Program-made: the position numbers and the translations under genes | From: Squalus acanthias | Taxonomy: Eukaryota | Length of the DNA stretch: 64,000 nucleotides | Direction: 5' to 3' | NCBI GenBank assembly: GCA_030390025.1 | Contig: CM059432.1 | Location: forward strand, 15,316,001 to 15,380,000 | In this document: positions 213-55,145 of the stretch, in pieces | Layout of the letters: every line of letters begins with the position of its first letter | Position numbering within the stretch: position 1 is the first letter of the stretch | The notes under the pieces: model-generated | What the model was told of the DNA's origin: nothing | The model's input: the letters and a program-made list of their open reading frames with translations, nothing else | Database searches by the model: none

Positions 213-972
213 GGGCCAGAAATTCGGCTCCCTGGCTTCCCGCGGGTGCAAGGATTGCGCGCGCACCTACCTACCGCGCCTGCCGTTGACCCCTGGGCCC
301 ACGAGCAATTCGGGTCCTGGGCCTCCTCCAACTGCTGGCGCGCAGGGCTTGCGTATCCCAGGGGCGTAGTTAGTGTGATGTGTCCCCTGGGATCACGTGG
401 GCCATGGAGAGCCAATGGCAGCAGACCATCTTTCATTCATAGATTTGACAGGACCTGTCAAATCTATGAATACAGATCGGCCCCAAACATCCCTAAAACT
501 ACAAATAATTTTTTTTTTTAATCACATTTTTAAAATAACTATAAATTACATTAATTAACCATTTTAAACAAAAATTTAAATTTTTGAAACAATTAATTAC
601 ACTTTTTAACGGGGTTAAAACTAAACTTACCTTTCTTTAAAGTAATTAAAAAAGATAAATCTGTGAAAAAAATGTTTAAATTTTTATAAAATCAACACTT
701 ACCTTGTTAAAAGAAGGCCTTGCACCTCCTTTTTCAATGTGCATCTTCTCCGTGCTTGCCCTCACGGAGGAACCTGTAAAAAAACCCGAAGTGCGAGGCG
801 AACGCGCTGGCCCTCCGGCGTGCGCGTTCGACCTCTGAACCCCTTCCTTCAGGGGAACGGAAGTGTCGGTTTCCCGCGCATGCGCAGTGCATGCAAGAAA
901 CCGGCACTTTCGTTCCGTCCACGGGTGAGTACATAGTGCGTACTCACCCGTGGCGAGCCTAATTTCTGCCCC
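213..972. mobile_element. Non-autonomous PIF/Harbinger-type MITE (family A)
   Basis: TIRs GGGCCAGAAATTCGGCTC / GAGCCTAATTTCTGCCCC, 3-bp TSD ATT (210-212, 973-975), homologous inverted copy at 41444-45672. Confidence 0.8.
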
Positions 973-1388
973 ATTATGTTTAAATTGTAGATAGTAATTT
1001 TGGGTGTGGAGATATTTTGTGCTTTATTCCCCCACCACCTGCCACCCCACCTCCGCTCCAGTTTGCTTGACTCTTCTTCAGAAGGCACTGATCTTGCTGG
1101 AGGTACCGAACTATGGCACCATCTACCCTTTGGCACCTCATCCGGCAAGCCATCCTTCTACACGAGCCCAGACTGTGGGTATAAGTCGATTATTTGACCA
1201 CTCAGGGTATCATAGCCAAACCAAATCTTATTGTCCACATACATAAACTTTCCAAGCAAGGGTCACTGGATAGCAACTGGGGAAAGAACCCTGGCCGATT
1301 TTTTTTCTTCCGTTGCCCAAGATCACTTCGGTCAATAATAAATAGTAACCTTGCCACCCGAGTTGAGGTGAGCTAACTCGGCACAGCC

Positions 1389-1670
1389 TCGGGATGCCAA
1401 TCCTCCAGCATTGCCCTGGAGTCTTCAGGAATTAAAGATGAATCTTCTGGACGCTGTTGCGAGCAAACCCCGGGAGAAAAATCATAGGAGCATTAAAAAA
1501 AATGGTGTTTTTAAAAAAAAAATTATTTGAACACTTTTATTTATTAGTTATAAAAGTATTGGTGATGGGGCGGCGGGGGGAAAGGCAGTTTGACTGGGGA
1601 GGGCGATTGGAGGTCGGAGGTCACGTGATGAAACCTCCATGAATGCATCCAACCAGAGCTGGCAACCCTA
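1389..1670. mobile_element. hAT-type MITE (TAGGGTTGCCA-like TIRs)
   Basis: Ends tcgggatgccaa...tggcaacccta, flanked by 8-bp GCACAGCC / GCACAGCT. Related copies at ~32209-32462 and ~59955-60015. Confidence 0.65.
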
Positions 1671-2079
1671 GCACAGCTCGGACGTTCAACCTGAGACCTT
1701 CTCTAACACCTCACTTCCACACTTCCGAACTGCTTCCAAACTTAAGCAGTAGGGCAGGTGCAGATTTTGTATTTTTACATTAAATCTCAGATGTGAGCTT
1801 AAACACATACACATTCGAGCTCGGCGCAGCAAATTAGATTGCAGACCTGGCAAGGAGGTTCAATGTAAAGCACACGGAAAGTCAAATAAGAAGGTCAAAT
1901 AACAACACAGGAAGAAAAGAACATTTTCCAACCGAACTTCACAGCGGCAAGAATCATATCCACCAGCATCGTGCTCCAATAAATAGGGGTCTTATCGTTT
2001 GATATGAAGCAGTGTACAATAAGCCAGACTTGATTGTCAGCTTAAAATATGACCTTTTGTTTCCAGTAATAAAACAAAC

Positions 2080-2205
2080 CTGTTGGTATCCATGGATCCA
2101 TGAAAGGTTTCACCATTGTGTTTACTTGATCCCAGTCAAGGTCACTGTCATCCAGTCTCTGACTGTACCCACAAACACCGAACGGTTCATCAAAGGAGCA
2201 GCTTC
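2080..2205 (-). CDS. PTPRM: Internal coding exon (probable exon 2) of a type IIB receptor protein tyrosine phosphatase, N-terminal part of the MAM domain; PTPRM-like, PTPRT not excluded
   Basis: Translates (G)SCSFDEPFGVCGYSQRLDDSDLDWDQVNTMVKPFMDPWIPT(G), matching the CxFDEP-x3-CGYSQ...WxQVNT..KP..DPW.P.G pattern I recall for PTPRM. Pyrimidine tract plus tgcAG acceptor at 2207-2206, ACAG|GTTTGT donor at 2079-2078, 126 bp, phase 1 at both ends. Confidence 0.8.
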
Positions 2206-3387
2206 CTGCAGAAGCAGAAGAAAAAAGAATGAGCAAAAAAAAAAAAATCCATTTCAATTTAAAAAGCATGCATTCATATCTTTCGTAGTCGGAGATTTTT
2301 AATTAAAATTCCCTTTGATGAAAGGACGAGGCAGCCCTTTCTTCACTCTGAATGGTCTGCACAACAAAAGTCATCTTTAATGCACCACCTCAAACAAGAA
2401 GTCCAATCACACAATCTTAACACTTTCATATCTGCAGCACTTTCAAGACCATTGAGATCCTGTCGTCATTAATTTTATGAAACACTGGAGCTGTGTGAAA
2501 AGTTATTACTTTTTTTTTATTAGGATTAGACATGAATTTTATCTGGAATGTGTGAAAATTCATTCTTACTTTCCGGTTTCTAAAAGCATTAGCCTACAAA
2601 CAAGTGTCAGCGAACAGCACAGAAGCAATAAGGTCAGATTAGAGGGCTGGGTTGCATAGACATTTTAAACATTGCTGTTTAAACACCACTTCTGGGACCA
2701 GGGTTTAAACTGATTGGATGAAAGCACCTCTCTCTCTCTCTCTGTCTCTGTCTCTGTCTCTCACTCTGCTCATGTAGATTGTGAGGATCTTGTGTAAAAT
2801 GGGTCAGGCAGCCTCAACCCAGTTGAAAGGGCCTAAACACAAAGCTACCTACAATTCTGGATCAGCGGGCACTGAAGGGCCTACTTCACTCTTAGCACAC
2901 TGGCCGTACATTAAATGGGAATTTTTTTCCTCAAGTTGTTTTTAGTGGACTTTCAGGAGCACACAGGGTTTACTCATTACACATTCTTGGAGCTCAAATG
3001 TGTTACGACTAATGAGAAACTGAGCAGCCGAACAAGAAGAATCAATTCTGAATCATCAATTAACCTCCTTAATAGGCATAGAAACGCATTTATTCAAGAG
3101 ATGTATGGACAAACATGTCTTATTTCAAGGAAAAAGCTGAGGTAAGCAATATGGATCACTGTCAGTTACCTCACACTGCTACAGTACATATGTCAATGGA
3201 TGTCAATTACTCTGCATTGCTATATACGGGCACAAATGCCAACTATCTTACATTTGTTACGTCAACTTCGTCCATCTGAATAGTTTCACCCCACGGTATT
3301 GTTAAGCTGAATTTAACTAGTACCATGCTGGAAGTAAAGAATAAAGAGATGACCAAGATGTTTCTGAGCTATTACCAAAGGCAGTTT

Positions 3388-16689: not shown

Positions 16690-17405
16690 CTTCTATTTCC
16701 CGCACTTCTGCTCTCACCCCATCCCCTCCCTCCCGGAACCACGATAGGGTTCCCCTTGTCCTCACCTTTCACCCCACCAGCCTCCACATTCAATGGATCA
16801 TCCTCCGTCATTTCCGCCACCTCCAGCGTGATCCCACCACCAAACACATCTTCCCCTCCCCTCCCTTCTCAGCATTCTGAAGGGACCGCTCGCTCCGCGA
16901 CACCCTGGTCCACTCCTCTATCACCCCCAACACCCCTTCCCCTTCGCCCGGCACCTTCACGTGCAAGCACAGGAGATGCAACACATGCCCTTTTACCTCC
17001 TCCCTTCCCACTGTCCAGGGCCCCAAACACTCCTTCCAGGTGAAACAGCGATTTATTTGTACTTCTTGCAATTTAGTATACTGTATTCGCTGCTCATGAT
17101 GCGGTTTCCTCTACATTTGGAAGACCAAACGCAGATCGGGTGACCGCTTTGCGGAACATCTCCGTTCAGTCCATAAGGGTGACCCCGAGCTTCCGGTCGC
17201 CTGTCACTTTAATTCTCCGCTCCACTCCCACTCTGACCTCTCCGTCCTCGGCCTCTTACACTGTTCCAATGAAGCTCAATGTAAGCTCGAGGAACAGCAC
17301 CTTATCTTTCGATTAGGCACTTTACAGCCTTCTGGACTCGACACTGAGTTCAACAATTTCAGACTATAACCTCTGCCCCAATCTTTTTTTTTCCATTTTT
17401 TTTTT
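16690..17405 (+). mobile_element. Degenerate Penelope-like element fragment (linker + GIY-YIG region)
   Basis: Similar to the C-terminal part of ORF 42245-44530 (NHDRVPLVLTFHPTS...), with in-frame stops. Confidence 0.85.
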
Positions 17406-29224: not shown

Positions 29225-29400
29225 GATGTGGAGATGCCGGCGTTGGACTGGGGTGGACAAAAATGAGAAGTCGCACAACACCAGGTTATAGTCCAACAGA
29301 TTTATTTAATTTTACAAGCTTTCGAAGCAGTTCGCTCCTTCGTCAGGTAAGTTAGCAATGAGAGAATCTCCCAGAATTCACAATTTAAACCCAGACAAAA
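29225..29400 (-). mobile_element. 3' end of a second Penelope-like family, with hammerhead
   Basis: Hammerhead core followed on the minus strand by a short tail ending ...CCAACGCCGGCATCTCCACATCA; sequence differs from the main family. Confidence 0.55.
29312..29350 (-). ncRNA. Minimal type I hammerhead ribozyme motif
   Basis: Minus strand reads ttac-CUGACGA-A-GGAGC-gaacu-GCUUC-GAAA-GC-UU-guaa: stem I ttac/gtaa, stem II, palindromic AGCU stem III. Confidence 0.7.
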
Positions 29401-32587: not shown

Positions 32588-32706
32588 CAGAAAAGCAAAA
32601 TACGGCGGATGCTGGAAATCTCAAAGAAAAAGAGAAAATGCTGGCAGTGCTCAACAGTAGATCATGCTGCCTGACCTGCTGAGTATTTCCAACAATTTCT
32701 CTTTTT
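32588..32706. mobile_element. Miniature fold-back Penelope 3'-end insertion (no hammerhead retained)
   Basis: Tail aagcaaaatac..ggatgctggaaatc plus inverted arm; 11-bp TSD TATTCTTCACC (32577-32587, 32707-32717). Confidence 0.65.
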
Positions 32707-40562: not shown

Positions 40563-41931
40563 CAATTCATCTCAACGCGCCATCAAATTCACCTCACTTA
40601 TCTATTGCAATCTTTATTCGCCCTCAAAAGCTGTTCCTTCAGCCCCTCCCTGTTTATTTAGATCGGGTAATCTGAATTTCAACATGCTTCCATTTACCAG
40701 GACCTCCAGTGGAAGTTCTTACCTCCCTCGGTCTTCCTTTCCTCCTAAAAGTGACTGTTTTTAAAAACCTAAGCTGTCATCACTTAAACACTACTTGCTG
40801 CTTATTTCATCTTCTTGCTTACCCTTTTCTACTATAGTGTTGTCCTACATTGTGGGCCTCAATCTTTTACTTGAGGCTCCCAAACTTAAAAACCCTGTAT
40901 CATTGGAAAGTTATGAAATAACAGGGGAATTTGCTGTGAATCTATATATTAGTTGTTTAGGCTCTCCCTCCCATAGTCATTAGTTCATGTAGTTGACAGG
41001 TAGTGCTACCTAAAACACAAACTACAGGGCATCACTTCAGGAGATCCTCAGAGAAACATCCTAGGCCCAACCATCTTCAGCTGCTTCATCAATGACCATC
41101 CCACCATCATAAGGTCAGAAATGGGGCTGTTCCTCTCCACATTTCTCAAATGTATCATTGCCACCTAACTCTCCGCCTACATTTCCTCTGCTTGAATCCT
41201 TTTTGGCTGGTCTCCATCCTGCCCACAATACAGAGATCACTCTAGTCAAAGTCACCAGCGATATCCTGTGCGACTAAGACTGCGATTAATTATCCCCCCA
41301 CCATCACCTCTGCCAGCTTTGACAGAGTCAACCACTTCATCCTCCTCCCCTGCATCATCTCTATGGTGCGACTCTTTTATGGTTCCATTATTGACTGTCC
41401 CAACATCTACTGCAATGGCCTCTCCTTTCATACTTGAAACGTTGGGCCAAAAATTCGGCCCTTCCCGGGTGAGTACGCACTGTGTACTCACCCATAAGGC
41501 CTCCTGAAGTGCCGGTTTCCTGCATGCACTGCGCATGCGCGGGAAACCGGAACTTCCGGTCTGGTGAAGGGAGTGGTTCATAGGTGAACCGCGTGCGCGG
41601 TAGAGGCTGCGCGCACGCAGCAAACTTAGGTTTTTTTCAGGTTTCTCCGGGAGGGTAAGTATTGAAGAACCTACGCTTTTAAAAAGGAGGCGCAGGACCC
41701 GTTTTCAACAAGGTAAGTGGTTAATTAAGTATAATTTAAAAAAAATTTCAACAGGTTTATCTTTTTTAGATACTTTAAAGAAAGGTAAGTTTATTTTTAG
41801 CACTGTTAAAAAGTATTTTAATTTTTTCAAAAATTTAAATTTTTGTTTAAAGTAGTTAATTTATTTAACTAACAACAGAAAACGCTGGAAAAACTCAGCA
41901 GGCCAGGCAGCATCCGTGGAGAGAGAAAGAG

Positions 41932-41968
41932 AGTTGACGTTTCAGGTCGATGACCTTTCATCAGAACT
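41932..41968 (-). ncRNA. Minimal type I hammerhead ribozyme motif (Penelope pLTR)
   Basis: aguu-CUGAUGA-A-AGGUC-auc-GACCU-GAAA-CG-UC-aacu. Confidence 0.8.
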
Positions 41969-42244
41969 GGGAAGAGCTGGAAATCAAATAGATTTAAGGC
42001 CAGGGTAAAGCTGGGAAAAGGGGGAGGGGATAAAGGAACAAAGGAGGAGATGAAGAGACATTAAGAGACATTAAGAGATATGCAAGGCTAGAGGTGGTGT
42101 TAATGTGACAGATTAAGGCTGAATGAAGTGTGAAATCTACTGGCAGAATGAAGGACAGCTGCCAGCTTCTAGGAGGAAAAAAAAGGTGGGGGGGACAAAT
42201 AAAAGGGTGGATAAAATAAAATATAAATGTGATTGGAGCTGAGG

Positions 42245-44530
42245 TTATGATCTAAAATTGTTGAACTCGATATTGAGTCCAGAGGGCTGTAGCGTGCCTA
42301 AACAAAAGATGAGGTGCTGTTCCTCGAGCTTACGCTGAGCTTCCGTGGAACAGTGTATTAGGCCGAGGACGGTGAGGTCAGAGTGGGAGTGAAGCGGTGA
42401 ATTAAAGTGACAGGCCACCGGGAGCTCGGGGTCCCCCTTACGGACTGAACGGAGGTGTTCCGCAAAGCGGTCACCCAATCTGCGTTTGGTCTCCCCAATG
42501 TAGAGGAGTCCACATCGTGAGCAGCGAATACAGTATACTAAATTGCAGGAAGTACAAGTAAATCGCTGTTTCACCTGGAAGGGGTGTTTGGGGCCCTGGA
42601 CAGTGGGAAGAGGGGAGGTATAAGGGCATGTGTTGCATCTCCTGCGCGTGCACGGGAAGGTGCCGGGCGAAGGGGAAGGGGTGCTGGGGGTGGTAGAGGA
42701 GTGGACTAGGGTGTCGCGGAGGGAGCGGTCCCTGCGGAATGCTGAAAGGGGAGGTGAGGGGAAGATGTGTTTGGTGGTGGGATCACGCTGGAGGTGGCGG
42801 AAATGGCGGAGGATGATCCGTTGAATGTGGAGGCTGGTGGGGTGAAAGGTGAGGACAAGGGGAACCCTATCGTGGTTCCGGGAGGGAGGGGCAGGGGTGA
42901 GGGCAGATGTGCGGGAGATAGAACGGACACGGTCGAGGGCCGTGTCGACCACGGTAGAGGGGAATCCTCGGTTGAGGAAAAAGGAAGACATGTCGGAAGC
43001 ACTGGTATGGAAGGTGGCATCATCAGAGCAGATGCGGCGGAGACGGAGAAACTGGGAGAATGGAATAGAGTCCTTACAGGAGGCGGGGTGGGAGGAAGTG
43101 TAGTCCAGGTAGCTGTGGGAGTCGGTGGGCTTGTAGTGAATGTTAGTCAATAACCTATCCCCAGAGATGGAGATGGAGAAGTCGAGGAAGGGAAGAGAAG
43201 AGTCGGAGATGGACCATGTGAAGGTGAGGGAAGGGTGGAAATTGGAAGCATAGTGAATGAAATGTTCTAGTTCAGGGCGAGAGCAGGAGACGGCACCGAT
43301 ACAGTCATCAATGTACCGGAAAAAGAGGTGAGGGAGGGGACCCGAGTAGGACTGGAACAAAGAGTGTTCCACATATCCCACGAAAAGGCAGGCATAGCTA
43401 GGACCCATGCGGGTACCCATAGCAACACCTTTAATTTGGAGGAAATGGGTAGAGTCAAAGGAGAAGTTGTTCAATGTGAGAACAAGTTCAGCCAGGCGGA
43501 GGAGGGTGGTGGTGGATGGGGACTGGTTGGGCCTCTGTTCAAGGAAGAAGCGGAGCGCCCTCAGGCCATCCTGGTGGGGAATGGAGGTGTAGAGGGATTG
43601 TACGTCCATAGTGAAGAGGAGACGGTTGGGGCCGGGAAACTGTAAACTGTTAAAATGGCGGAGGGCATCGGAAGAGTCGCGGATGTAGGTGGGAAGAGAC
43701 TGGACAAGGGGAGAAAAAATAGAGTCGAGATAGGAAGAGATAAGTTCCGTGGGGCAAGAACAGGCTGAAACGATGGGTCTACCGGGGCAGTCCTGTTTGT
43801 GGATCTTGGGAAGGAGGTAGAAGCGGGCTGTGCGGGGTTGGGGAACTATGAGGTTGGCGGCCGTGGGGGGAAGATCTCCAGAGGAGATGAGGTCAGTGAC
43901 AGTCTTGGACACGGTGGCTTGATGTTCGGTAGTGGGGTCATGGTCCAGGTGGAGGTAGGAGGAGGTGTCAGAGAGTTGGCGTTCAACTTCCGCTAGGTAG
44001 AGGTCGGTTCGCCAAACAACAACAGCGCCACCCTTGTCAGCAGGTTTAATGACAATGTCAGGGTTGGATCGGAGAGAATGGAGTGCTGCAAGTTCAGAGG
44101 GAGGTAGGTTGGAGTGAGTGAGGGGAGCAGAGAAATTGAGCTGGCCGATGTCACGGCGGCAGTTAGCAATGAAAAGATCAAGAGAGGGTAAGAGGCCAGA
44201 GGGAGGGGTCCAGGTGGAACGAGAATTCTGAAAGCGGGAGAAAGGGTCAGCCGTGCGGGGGGAAGACTCCTGGCCAGAGAAGTGGGCACGGAGACGGAGG
44301 CGGCGGAAAAAGAGCTCAGCATCGTGCCGAGCTCGAAATTCATTGAGATGGGGGCGTAAGGGGATGAAGCTCAGGCCTTTGCTGAGGACTGATCGTTCGG
44401 AGTCAGAGAGGGGAAGGTCAGAGGGGATAGTGAAAACGCGGCAGGGGGTGAGATTGGGAGAAGGGGGGTCAGAGGAAAGTGAAGGGGAAGAAGGTTCCGG
44501 AGGGGCTTTAGTGCAGGAGATGCAACACAT
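42245..44530 (-). CDS. Penelope-like RT + GIY-YIG endonuclease ORF (761 aa, 5'-truncated, ATG supplied by the inverted arm)
   Basis: IKPADKGG, FYLLPKIHK..PGRPIVS, MDVQSLYTSIP, GVAMG, RYIDD, LPFLD, Cys linker CTRRRCNTC, NLVYCIRCSRCGLLYIGET..RF.EH, terminal P.GLN. Confidence 0.92.
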   Translation of the reverse strand: MCCISCTKAPPEPSSPSLSSDPPSPNLTPCRVFTIPSDLPLSDSERSVLSKGLSFIPLRPHLNEFRARHDAELFFRRLRLRAHFSGQESSPRTADPFSRFQNSRSTWTPPSGLLPSLDLFIANCRRDIGQLNFSAPLTHSNLPPSELAALHSLRSNPDIVIKPADKGGAVVVWRTDLYLAEVERQLSDTSSYLHLDHDPTTEHQATVSKTVTDLISSGDLPPTAANLIVPQPRTARFYLLPKIHKQDCPGRPIVSACSCPTELISSYLDSIFSPLVQSLPTYIRDSSDALRHFNSLQFPGPNRLLFTMDVQSLYTSIPHQDGLRALRFFLEQRPNQSPSTTTLLRLAELVLTLNNFSFDSTHFLQIKGVAMGTRMGPSYACLFVGYVEHSLFQSYSGPLPHLFFRYIDDCIGAVSCSRPELEHFIHYASNFHPSLTFTWSISDSSLPFLDFSISISGDRLLTNIHYKPTDSHSYLDYTSSHPASCKDSIPFSQFLRLRRICSDDATFHTSASDMSSFFLNRGFPSTVVDTALDRVRSISRTSALTPAPPSRNHDRVPLVLTFHPTSLHIQRIILRHFRHLQRDPTTKHIFPSPPLSAFRRDRSLRDTLVHSSTTPSTPSPSPGTFPCTRRRCNTCPYTSPLPTVQGPKHPFQVKQRFTCTSCNLVYCIRCSRCGLLYIGETKRRLGDRFAEHLRSVRKGDPELPVACHFNSPLHSHSDLTVLGLIHCSTEAQRKLEEQHLIFCLGTLQPSGLNIEFNNFRS

Positions 44531-45189
44531 GCCCTTATACCTCCCCTCTTCCCACTGTCCAGGGCCCCAAACACCCCTTCCAGGTGAAACAGCGATTTAC
44601 TTGTACTTCCTGCAATTTAGTATACTGTATTCGCTGCTCACGATGTGGACTCCTCTACATTGGGGAGACCAAACGCAGATTGGGTGACCGCTTTGCGGAA
44701 CACCTCCGTTCAGTCCGTAAGGGGGACCCCGAGCTCCCGGTGGCCTGTCACTTTAATTCACCGCTTCACTCCCACTCTGACCTCACCGTCCTCGGCCTAA
44801 TACACTGTTCCACGGAAGCTCAGCGTAAGCTCGAGGAACAGCACCTCATCTTTCGTTTAGGCACGCTACAGCCCTCTGGACTCAATATCGAGTTCAACAA
44901 TTTTAGATCATAACCTCAGCTCCAATCACATTTATATTTTATTTTATCCACCCTTTTATTTGTCCCCCCCACCTTTTTTTTCCTCCTAGAAGCTGGCAGC
45001 TGTCCTTCATTCTGCCAGTAGATTTCACACTTCATTCAGCCTTAATCTGTCACATTAACACCACCTCTAGCCTTGCATATCTCTTAATGTCTCTTAATGT
45101 CTCTTCATCTCCTCCTTTGTTCCTTTATCCCCTCCCCCTTTTCCCAGCTTTACCCTGGCCTTAAATCTATTTGATTTCCAGCTCTTCCC

Positions 45190-45226
45190 AGTTCTGATGA
45201 AAGGTCATCGACCTGAAACGTCAACT
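45190..45226 (+). ncRNA. Minimal type I hammerhead ribozyme motif (inverted pLTR copy)
   Basis: agtt CTGATGA A AGGTC atc GACCT GAAA CG TC aact read directly on the + strand. Confidence 0.8.
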
Positions 45227-45679
45227 CTCTTTCTCTCTCCACGGATGCTGCCTGGCCTGCTGAGTTTTTCCAGCGTTTTCTGTTGTTATTTCGGATTTCC
45301 AGCATCTGCAGTATTTTGCTATCGTAATTTATTTAACTTATAGTTATTTTATAAATGTGATGGTTTTTTTAAAATTTATTTTAAGTTTAGCTGTTCTTTT
45401 GGGGCCGATTTCAATTCACAGATTTGACAGGTCCTGTCAAATCTATGAATGAAAGATGGTCTGCTGCCATTGGCTCTCCATGGCCCACGTGATCCCAGGG
45501 GACGCATCGCACTAACTACGCCCCTGGGACACGCACGCACTGCGCGCCGGCACTTGGAGCAGGCCCAGGAGCTGAAGTTCCCGTGGACCCAGAGGTCAAC
45601 GGCAGGCGCGGTAGGTAAGTGCGCGTGCGATCCTTACCCCCGCGGCAAGCCGGAGAGGCGAATTTCAGGGCCGTTTTAT

Positions 45680-46680
45680 CTCTGGCATTCCCCAAGCTTT
45701 CATCCTTGGGTCACTTTGTCTTCCCCATCTAGATGCTCCCTATCAGTAGCATGCTCCATAAGCATGTGATCAGTTTTCATGCGTGTGCCAAGACACTCAG
45801 CTTTTCCTCTCCACCACCAGTCTAGACTCCATGGCTTGATTCAAGTCATGGATGACCAACACTTTCTCTAGCTCAATACTGATAAGATCAAAGCAATGTT
45901 CTCCAGCCCCTGGGAGAAACTTTGCAACTTAGCCAATGATTCTATCTGCCTTCCTGATCATATGCTGAGCCCAATACTTCAGAAGCTCAACGTCCTGTTT
46001 GACCCTAAACTGATATTCAAACCCCACATGCAGCCCAAGCGCCAAGACTATCTGTTTCCAAAGTACTGCTTGCTTCCTTCCCACCTCACCATCCCCATCA
46101 CTGGAGCACTCAACCACGCCTTTGTCACCTCCAAGCTAGACTTCTGCAATGTTCACTTCACCAACTTTCCAAGTTGCACCTTACATAATATCCAACTCGT
46201 CCAGAACTCCTCCTTCCTCATCCCATCCTTTATCAAGTCCTACCCGCCTACCACCCCTGTCCTGGTTCCCCACCCCTTAGTACATCGATTTCAAAATCCT
46301 TGGGGGTGAAATTGGTCTTGTTGAGTAGCACGAAATGGTCAATAGTTGATCAGCAGCCCGTTTTACACCCGCTTGATTTTCTTTTCTATTGGCCTTGTGA
46401 CGTAAAACCGATTCACTAGCGCCCATTTCGCAATACCGCCCAAGACCAATTTCACCCCCCTCGTCAAATATGTAAGTCATGCCACACCCTACCTTTGCAA
46501 CCTCCTCTAGCTCCACATCCCAGTTCGCACACTCTGCACTTGTGACTCTAATCCACCGCCTGTGCCTGCTTCAACATGACAGGTGGTAGAGCCTCCAACC
46601 ATCACACTTCTGTGCTCTGGAGTGCTCTTCCAAATCCTACCTTCAAAAGTCACCAGGCCTTCAATCATCTCTCTGAACTC
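45680..46680 (+). mobile_element. Highly degenerate L2-like LINE remnant
   Basis: HAFVTSKLDFCN...IQLVQNS resembles L2 ORF2 (HAFVTSRLDYCN...LQLVQN). Confidence 0.6.
46302..46459. mobile_element. Short Harbinger-type MITE (family C)
   Basis: TIRs GGGGGTGAAATTGGTCTTG / CAAGACCAATTTCACCCCC; related copy at ~54064-54234. Confidence 0.7.
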
Positions 46681-52818: not shown

Positions 52819-53029
52819 AATAACAACAGAAAACGCTGGAACAACTCAGCAGGTCAGGCAACATCCGTGGAGAGAGAAACAGAGTTAACGTTTCAGGTCG
52901 AAGACCCTTCGTCAGAACTGAAACGTTAACTCTGTTTCTCTCTCCACGGATGTTGCCTGGCCTGCTGAGTTTTTCCAGCGTTTTCTGTTGTTATTTCAGT
53001 CTTCCAGCATCCGCAGTATTTTGCTATTG
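52819..53029. mobile_element. Miniature fold-back Penelope pLTR insertion with hammerhead
   Basis: 15-bp TSD TAATCTAATCTCTGG (52804-52818, 53030-53044); inverted arms ~52819-52896 and ~52918-52995; 34-nt tail. Confidence 0.85.
52883..52919 (-). ncRNA. Minimal type I hammerhead ribozyme motif
   Basis: aguu-CUGACGA-A-GGGUC-uuc-GACCU-GAAA-CG-UU-aacu. Confidence 0.75.
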
Positions 53030-54752: not shown

Positions 54753-55145
54753 ACTGAAGCAAAATACTGCGGATGCTGGAAATCTGAAATAAAAACAGAA
54801 AATGCTGGAAATACTCAGCAGGTCAGGCAGCATCTGTGGAGAGAGAAACAAAGTTAACGTTTCAGGTCGATGACTCTTCATCAGAGCTGGAAAAAGTTAG
54901 AGATGGAACAGGTTTTTAAGCAAGTACAGAGGCAGGGAAAGGGAGGAGGGGAGGAAAGAACAAAAGGGAAGGTCTGTGATAGGATGGAAGGCAGGAGAGA
55001 TTAAAAGACAAAAGGGATGATGGTGCAAGGCAAAAGGAGATAGTAATGGGACAAGTTAAGAAACAAAAGTTGACTCTAGATGAGGTGTAAATGGCAATGG
55101 CAGAATCATCAACAGCTGCCATGTGAGAGAGAAAAAAAGAAAACT
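54753..55145 (-). mobile_element. Penelope pLTR/3' UTR fragment with hammerhead motif (54852-54888)
   Basis: 10-bp TSD GTATCATTTT (54743-54752, 55146-55155); minus strand CUGAUGA-A-GAGUC-auc-GACCU-GAAA-CG-UU with a weakened stem II. Confidence 0.75.

Follow-up and report, generated by a model that had tools for sequence, protein, structure and literature searches.

A stretch of Squalus acanthias DNA carries, at 41871-45324, a real, very young and canonical two-armed insertion of a Penelope-like element (PLE). The stretch, hereafter the window, is 64,000 nucleotides long and corresponds to positions 15,316,001 to 15,380,000 of the forward strand of contig CM059432.1 in GenBank assembly GCA_030390025.1, with position 1 as its first letter. 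The insertion very probably represents one integration event of a very young, high-copy PLE family, in which each of the two outward-facing 3' ends of the element was primed from one of the two cut strands of the target. To our knowledge, no class of eukaryotic retrotransposon is less well understood than PLEs, and the protein of one PLE only has been studied in vitro. Natural insertions of this kind provide an in vivo record that agrees with a model of two start sites for reverse transcription and of cutting on both target strands, and they add a testable rule to it, namely one tail per two-armed insertion. The copy in the window is an ordinary example of its family, and its value is that of a clean, dated specimen.

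The insertion measures 3,454 bp and is framed by a perfect 14-bp target-site duplication (TSD). It interrupts a host repeat that spans ~762 bp when uninterrupted, ends in imperfect terminal inverted repeats of ~24 bp (GGGCCAAAAATTCGGCCC... and ...GGCGAATTTCAGGGCC), and has 2,190 candidates in the genome, with 39 other full-length matches at 97-98% identity; this repeat looks like a young DNA element of the miniature inverted-repeat transposable element (MITE) kind. Paralogous copies of the host repeat can be used as empty sites, and in all 14 of those examined the left and right flanks of the window overlap by exactly 14 bp, so the insertion occupies exactly 41871-45324 and 14 bp were duplicated. 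Since the 37-nt tail at the right end is missing from these empty sites, it must have entered with the element. Among public contigs, an uninterrupted form of this very site would look the same as the 2,000-plus paralogues of the host repeat. The parts of the insertion and its target, numbered where needed by the 3,199-bp unit of the family, are as follows.

41444-41870, plus strand: left part of the host repeat (from paralogue comparison).
41857-41870, no strand: left copy of the TSD, TAATTTATTTAACT, present as a single copy in 14/14 paralogous empty sites.
41871-44512, minus strand: long 5'-truncated copy of the element, unit 521-3162, with its 3' end against the TSD and without a tail (site A; from BLAST to the natural 3,199-bp unit).
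41871-42645, minus strand: left inverted arm (unit 2388-3162), forming the 3' portion of the long copy and equal to the right arm at 774/775 bases.
42304, minus strand: sole difference between the arms, sense T where 44854 has C, CGT to TGT, R898C (from arm and family comparison).
44513-45287, plus strand: right inverted arm, a second 5'-truncated copy in the opposite orientation, unit 2388-3162 (from the arm alignment).
45288-45324, plus strand: 37-nt tail, unit 3163-3199, on the right arm only (site B; from the arm alignment, and absent from empty sites).
45325-45338, no strand: right copy of the TSD, TAATTTATTTAACT, a perfect 14-nt match with the left copy.
45325-45672, plus strand: right part of the host repeat (from paralogue comparison).

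The two arms are 775-nt reverse complements of each other with a single mismatch, 42304 A versus 44854 G. This mismatch is a CpG-type transition, because the sense codons are TGT (Cys) on the left and CGT (Arg) on the right, and it arose in the left arm, because other family copies have C, as does the right arm. Identity between the arms collapses one base beyond their inner end (42645), and the junction between the two copies at 44512/44513 shows a microhomology of 0-1 nt; a 46-mer that spans this inversion junction occurs once in the 3.7-Gb assembly (3.71 Gb). The right arm and its tail are identical to the natural unit across 812 nt, and the long copy is 99.9% identical to the 3,199-bp unit by BLAST, with 2 differences (at unit 1390 and 2729), so that the entire 3,454 bp contains only 2 private substitutions. 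These results bear out most of the structural description given in an initial annotation, which had been made from the letters of the window alone and had proposed a perfect 14-bp TSD, outward-pointing 775-bp arms with one CpG-type mismatch, a 37-nt tail confined to the right arm, element 3' ends at both borders (both arms do end in the 3' region of the unit), a MITE-like host repeat and a very young age.

Comparison with other copies indicates that the arrangement in the window follows a rule. The 3' ends of the family are of two classes, one at unit 3162-3169 (site A) and one at unit 3197-3204 (site B), with the tail occupying the interval from one to the other. When neighbours within 4 kb were paired among the first 100 listed 3' ends, the (-,+) orientation, in which the 3' ends face outward, accounted for 11 pairs, versus 0.82 expected at random, and each of the three other orientations for 1. 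The count of two-armed insertions took in every (-,+) pair, others in the loci examined and one at 52819-53027 of the window, with both arms extending at least 44 nt before the tail. In 16/16 of these insertions the tail terminates one arm and one only, the partner arm stopping at unit 3162-3169; if the arms chose their start site independently, such a run of mixed pairs would have p of about 1e-5. Three additional cases lie outside this count and also fit the rule, two in which the arm is only an inverted tail (so that detection depends on the tail) and one that is interrupted by a later insertion. Single-armed insertions (n=18) include 7 with the tail and 11 without it.

Other properties of these insertions bear on how they were formed. 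The TSDs of two-armed insertions are 10-16 bp long, mostly 13-15, with one mismatch by eye in two old cases (L062 and L064), and an exact TSD of 9-15 bp was found in 14/18 single-armed insertions. In 12/16 pairs the tail-less arm extends further 5' than its partner. In all four old pairs that are informative, the two arms belong to the same subfamily and are far more alike mutually than either is to the young unit. Ends at site B include, after the tail, 0-5 nt (often 2-5) from the start of the next unit, which indicates that the template extended beyond the tail and that initiation was internal.

The second two-armed insertion of the window, at 52819-53027, is older (~92% identical) and has a 15-bp TSD, TAATCTAATCTCTGG. 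Its left arm covers unit 3165-3064 without a tail and its right arm covers 3085-3197 with one, so that it displays the same one-tail state.

The sequence of events that probably produced the window insertion begins with the element's endonuclease (EN), which would cut both strands of the host repeat 14 bp apart. One of the exposed 3'-hydroxyl ends would start complementary DNA (cDNA) synthesis at internal RNA site A and yield the 2,642-nt arm, and the other would start at site B, 37 nt downstream and probably on the same RNA, to yield the 812-nt arm. Both cDNAs would end before the 5' end of the RNA is reached, and host repair would then join them head to head at 44512/44513. The two starts are placed on one RNA because the arms always use different sites, each of which would be usable once per RNA; this version is supported by the same-subfamily arms of the four informative old pairs and weakly by the longer tail-less arm in 12/16 pairs. 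Twin priming in human L1, reportedly described by Ostertag and Kazazian in 2001, is also said to use both nicked strands to prime cDNA, with a single TSD around the resulting inversion. The second primer in L1 anneals at an internal position and the two segments partition the element, whereas here both cDNAs would start near the 3' terminus, at fixed sites 37 nt apart, and the arms duplicate the same region.

A more general proposal is that, in vivo, a PLE primed from two strands always uses site A once and site B once on the same RNA. This proposal is tentative and is considered to fall slightly short of an even chance. If it is true, the one-sided tail would be an obligatory footprint of coordinated double reverse transcription by a single ribonucleoprotein (RNP), about a fifth of the 3' ends in the family would stem from two-strand events, and each event would leave a perfect inverted repeat whose transcript, if made, would fold into long double-stranded RNA. 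The degree to which sites A and B are coupled may be new.

Much of this scheme has a counterpart in PAc, a Poseidon-clade PLE from Anolis carolinensis, which cleaves and extends both strands in vitro and initiates reverse transcription within the RNA, at two adjacent sites that have no homology to the target, with the spacing of these sites equal to the genomic tail (Frangieh et al., 2024; PMC11167929). The family analyzed here resembles PAc in using both strands, in having two start sites that set the tail and in having templates that run beyond the start sites. It is unlike PAc in vitro in that the arms of a given insertion never share a start site, and, whereas PAc cuts ATT in AT-rich DNA, the TSDs here are of mixed composition.

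Several points weigh against the two-strand reading or against its one-RNA form. For PAc in vitro, no difference in start site was seen between the two strands (PMC11167929), and the A/B coupling is for this reason documented by genomic copies only. The sample behind the one-tail rule is small and comes from one chromosome end and a few loci. The asymmetry in arm length is weak, since 12/16 corresponds to a one-sided p of ~0.04 and three of the differences are <=2 nt. In addition, none of the short contigs of public runs, which are too fragmented for a verdict on a very high-copy repeat such as this, was seen to bridge 44512/44513 or the junctions with the flanks.

The last of these points is also compatible with an assembly artefact, in which a mis-join or a chimeric, palindromic long read gave rise to the inverted arm; that assemblies have difficulty with PLE structures is noted in the available text of Craig et al. 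(2021; PMC8557442). Such an error would yield neither a perfect TSD that agrees with 14/14 empty sites nor a tail state in keeping with the rule that holds at 15 other loci, so an artefact is very improbable. It is still harder to credit that two independent insertions landed head to head, or that an inverted duplication occurred later at the DNA level. With at least 25,888 3' ends in the genome, chance neighbours do occur, and a convergent (+,-) pair (L067) looks like one; however, a single 14-bp TSD frames the composite in the window, neither arm has a TSD of its own, the excess of (-,+) pairs (11 versus 0.82 expected) stands against numbers as expected in the other orientations, and the one-tail rule would be unexpected. 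A DNA-level duplication would, moreover, have copied the tail state along with the arm.

Two further explanations retain a reverse transcription origin. Fold-back (snap-back) synthesis, in which a single cDNA copies itself into the second arm, would fit the many short pairs whose inner arm ends lie within 20 nt of each other. These close inner ends can be explained without it, as a hot spot of 5' ends (unit 3064-3090) that is shared with single-armed short copies, and the arms can be highly asymmetric (unit 521 versus 2388 in the window, 138 versus 806 in L068). The tail must be copied from RNA, yet the longer arm in the window is the one without it, and the tail-bearing arm does not reach as far 5' in 12/16 pairs, so there is little chance that fold-back synthesis accounts for the data. 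A closer relative of the preferred reading keeps priming from two strands but supplies two RNAs in a dimeric RNP, an asymmetry of which would direct its two subunits to different start sites, A and B. For the Anolis PLE, a dimeric protein is predicted (PMC11167929), and in young pairs, whose templates are all identical, one RNA is indistinguishable from two. Against this, the arms are of the same subfamily in 4/4 informative old pairs, and independent RNAs would permit A+A and B+B pairs, of which 0/16 were seen; a dimer with two RNAs is thus rather unlikely, and priming of both strands probably takes place on a single RNA.

The element is an endonuclease-bearing PLE, as had been recognized in the initial annotation, and its reverse transcriptase (RT) and GIY-YIG motifs, tandem and inverted copies, tail and hammerhead motif match the published anatomy. 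Every structural trait of the window insertion is already described for PLEs. The typical layout drawn in the available part of one paper includes an inverted 5'-truncated copy and a one-sided tail of 30-40 bp (Craig et al., 2021; PMC8557442), and the family shares with the canonical PLEs described there one open reading frame (ORF) for RT with a C-terminal GIY-YIG domain, heavy 5' truncation, partial tandems that make up pseudo-long terminal repeats (pLTRs), an inverted copy, a 30-40-bp tail at one end and a hammerhead in the repeated part. Inverted arms, short tails and minimal hammerheads had also been listed as PLE traits in the initial annotation, and each is found in the sections at hand of the literature (PMC8557442; PMC4209133). 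Unlike the layout that is drawn as typical, the window insertion has no direct pLTR and consists only of two inverted truncated copies (PMC8557442). The one-sided tail, which the same text describes as occurring 'often', is quantified here at 16/16.

Placement of the family among PLE clades is less firm. According to the portion of Craig et al. (2021) that bears on classification, a CX2-5CxxC linker between RT and EN is found in Neptune and Nematis and not in Penelope/Poseidon, and Neptune itself is paraphyletic and weakly supported (PMC8557442). The linker is present in this family, which distinguishes it from PAc, a member of Penelope/Poseidon that lacks it. The family also resembles Neptune, a clade of fish and invertebrates as characterized by Arkhipova (2006, as cited in PMC8557442), in its C-terminal EN, its C-x4-C-x2-C linker, its DKG motif, its minimal hammerheads and its vertebrate host; it is unlike Neptune in that none of 17 TSDs is a (TA)n microsatellite, the target bias hypothesized for that group, and TSD composition is mixed. 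The initial annotation had called a Cys-rich linker typical of Neptune; the CX4CX2C sequence does fit the motif, but the motif is insufficient for membership because Nematis shares it. 'Neptune-type' is a reasonable label that reflects this one linker motif.

The repeated 3' part of the element contains a predicted hammerhead ribozyme, one motif per arm, as listed here.

45190-45226, plus strand: minimal type-I hammerhead, AGTT-CTGATGA-A-AGGTC/ATC/GACCT-GAAA-CG-TC-AACT, with predicted cut after 45222 (from a descriptor scan).
41932-41968, minus strand: same hammerhead motif as the preceding one, here within the left arm and sense-oriented with respect to the ORF transcript (from a descriptor scan).

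The descriptor was modelled on the published minimal PLE hammerhead (helix I of 4 bp, helix II of >=4 bp) and gave 4 matches in the 64-kb window and 0 in 200 shuffled windows. The predicted hammerhead has the core CUGANGA ... GAAA ... UH with helices I and II in place, an extra A after CUGAUGA (A9) and a palindromic ACGU around the cleavage site. It resembles the metazoan PLE hammerheads in the accessible part of Cervera and De la Pena (2014; PMC4209133) in its CUGANGA/GAAA cores, the extra nucleotide after A9, a 4-bp helix I, the lack of helix III, a palindromic ACGU that would pair in a dimer, its position in the repeated 3' part and its occurrence in pairs on opposite strands. It is unlike them in having a helix II of 5 bp rather than 7-8 bp and an A-U pair at 10.1-11.1 rather than the highly conserved G-C. 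The predicted hammerhead lies ~170 nt upstream of the ATG of the next unit, whereas that of PAc is at the start codon, and hammerhead mutants of the Anolis element had no effect on insertion in vitro (PMC11167929).

The hammerhead motif call is considered sound, with ribozyme activity predicted from the motif. Three observations count against it. The highly conserved G10.1-C11.1 pair is replaced by A-U, as already described. Rfam returned no hammerhead match, whether 41000-46200 was scanned at E<=1 or 45120-45340 at E<=10, a null that is weak evidence because it is expected for motifs without helix III. No compensatory helix change was seen by eye among 59 matches (31 distinct versions, in copies 75-100% identical to the young unit), where the changes either affect loop 2, N7 or H17 or disrupt base pairs; some old subfamilies also carry the core change CCGACGA. 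RNA folding of the motif region as monomer and dimer was uninformative, with an extended duplex rather than a hammerhead dimer as the minimum-energy dimer. The paired hammerheads proposed in the initial annotation thus stand in part: there is one minimal motif in each arm, but the motifs have no Rfam match and, because they lie on opposite strands, one transcript cannot pair both. A different minimal hammerhead motif, GAAAGCUU, with CUGACGA and a 6-bp helix II, is present outside the family at 29312-29350 (minus strand) and is probably a remnant of another PLE lineage.

The protein-coding part of the insertion lies on the minus strand, in a frame that is open from stop to stop over 783 codons (44596..42245). 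Its features are listed below.

44513-44596, minus strand: chance 28-codon extension of the frame into the reverse complement of the right arm, not an element gene (full units have 161 other codons there).
42248-44512, minus strand: ORF remnant of 755 codons, residues 162-916 of a 916-aa protein with RT, linker and GIY-YIG (from the frame and full-unit comparison).
44027-44041, minus strand: ADKGG (DKG motif), residues 319-323 of the full-length protein (sequence motif).
43304-43315, minus strand: RT active-site YIDD (sequence motif).
42626-42652, minus strand: CX4CX2C linker motif CTRRRCNTC between RT and EN, residues 782-790 (sequence motif).
42488-42508, minus strand: GIY-YIG core LLYIGET (sequence motif and Pfam).
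42245-42247, minus strand: stop codon of the ORF remnant (from the frame).

The initial annotation had described this frame as an intact RT/GIY-YIG ORF, free of stops and with its catalytic motifs kept. The absence of stops and the presence of YIDD, the CX4CX2C linker and LLYIGET were seen again, but the ORF is not intact: relative to the 3,199-bp unit, the copy lacks 520 bp at its 5' end, and with them the ATG and codons 1-161 of 916. The missing 161 residues are conserved coding sequence, because the full-length 916-aa ORF aligns end to end, from MPTL onward, with a 904-residue relative at 51% identity. Having neither the ATG nor these residues, the window copy is likely non-autonomous, as judged from its reading frame. 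The frame extension contains a chance ATG at 44528-44530, and this case serves as a warning for annotation, since a seemingly 'intact' ORF proved to be a truncated one lengthened by chance into an inverted arm.

The protein remnant in the window has two residue changes (F451L and R898C). In Pfam searches of the window ORF, RVT_1 was matched at residues 273-433 (1.5e-5) and GIY-YIG at residues 685-722 (3.2e-4), and, as a point against the domain assignment, both matches are below the gathering scores. Homologues of the ORF number 1,164 at E<=1e-10 (best E = 5e-278); the nearest named ones are shark and ray proteins, 70-73% identical, and the remainder are largely from marine invertebrates. The inner arm end (42645) falls within the linker motif at 42626-42652. 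Cys and His residues also occur near the GIY-YIG core (CIRCSRC ... AEH ... CH) and are candidates at most for the CCHH motif of the Neptune EN domain.

At the level of the genome, the family has a unit of 3,199 bp, as defined by tandem arrays with a 3,199-bp period at >=4 loci, and the 37-nt tail sequence sits between units in these arrays. The unique middle part of the window copy (1,867 bp) has 2,260 candidates in the genome, of which 40 were scored; 39 are full-length matches that each differ from the window copy by one mismatch over the 1,867 bp, and one further match is partial. The first 916 codons are open in 8/8 full units examined, some of them from the same arrays, with 0-2 residue differences. 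The recent activity of the family suggested by the initial annotation was therefore upheld by the 39 other copies one base away and the eight open frames. The genome holds dozens of near-identical full units with open 916-codon frames, in addition to tens of thousands of insertions that can be read in the way described above. No paper describing the family was found in a literature search for it in cartilaginous fishes, and the family itself may be new.

An exact pattern search with a 33-mer at the 3' end gave 25,888 occurrences, and the reversed control gave 0. Copies that carry this 33-mer are 75-100% identical to the young unit, which indicates that the lineage is old and still active. Most copies of the lineage are short 3' fragments, only about 90-135 nt long (loci L036-L066), which could be either aborted copies or products of a short self-propagating RNA. 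The 5' ends of the short copies are concentrated at unit 3064-3090, which is the 5' edge of the hammerhead rather than its predicted cut (3097/3098), and the 3' 33-mer is at least ten times commoner than the body of the element (25,888 versus 2,260 candidates).

Some observations on tandem units and on other data sets were also made. One tandem pair (C15:26579454 and 26582663) is spaced by 3,209 bp rather than 3,199 bp. In the tandem at L006:753-3765, the ORF frame is open backwards through the tail and 3' untranslated region of the preceding unit, and the AUG of the hammerhead core CUGAUGA precedes the conserved MPTL start, in frame, by 55 codons; this in-frame AUG is probably due to chance, because older subfamilies have CUGACGA. 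In public run X7 (organism label B), a 2,372-nt contig differs from the family at 0-2 positions per 200-500 nt, and another public contig shows the tandem junction of the family. On account of such matching public-run contigs, the young family occurs under further organism labels as well (B, C and D). One run bears the label 'RNA?', which is a guess; its summed contig depth over the 3' 775 nt greatly exceeds that over the body, from which nothing is inferred.

The window contains additional fragments of the same lineage at 80-91% identity. That at 16691-17383 is internal (unit 2110-2802), and those at 32594-32657 and 54758-54964 are 3' fragments that end in the tail region.

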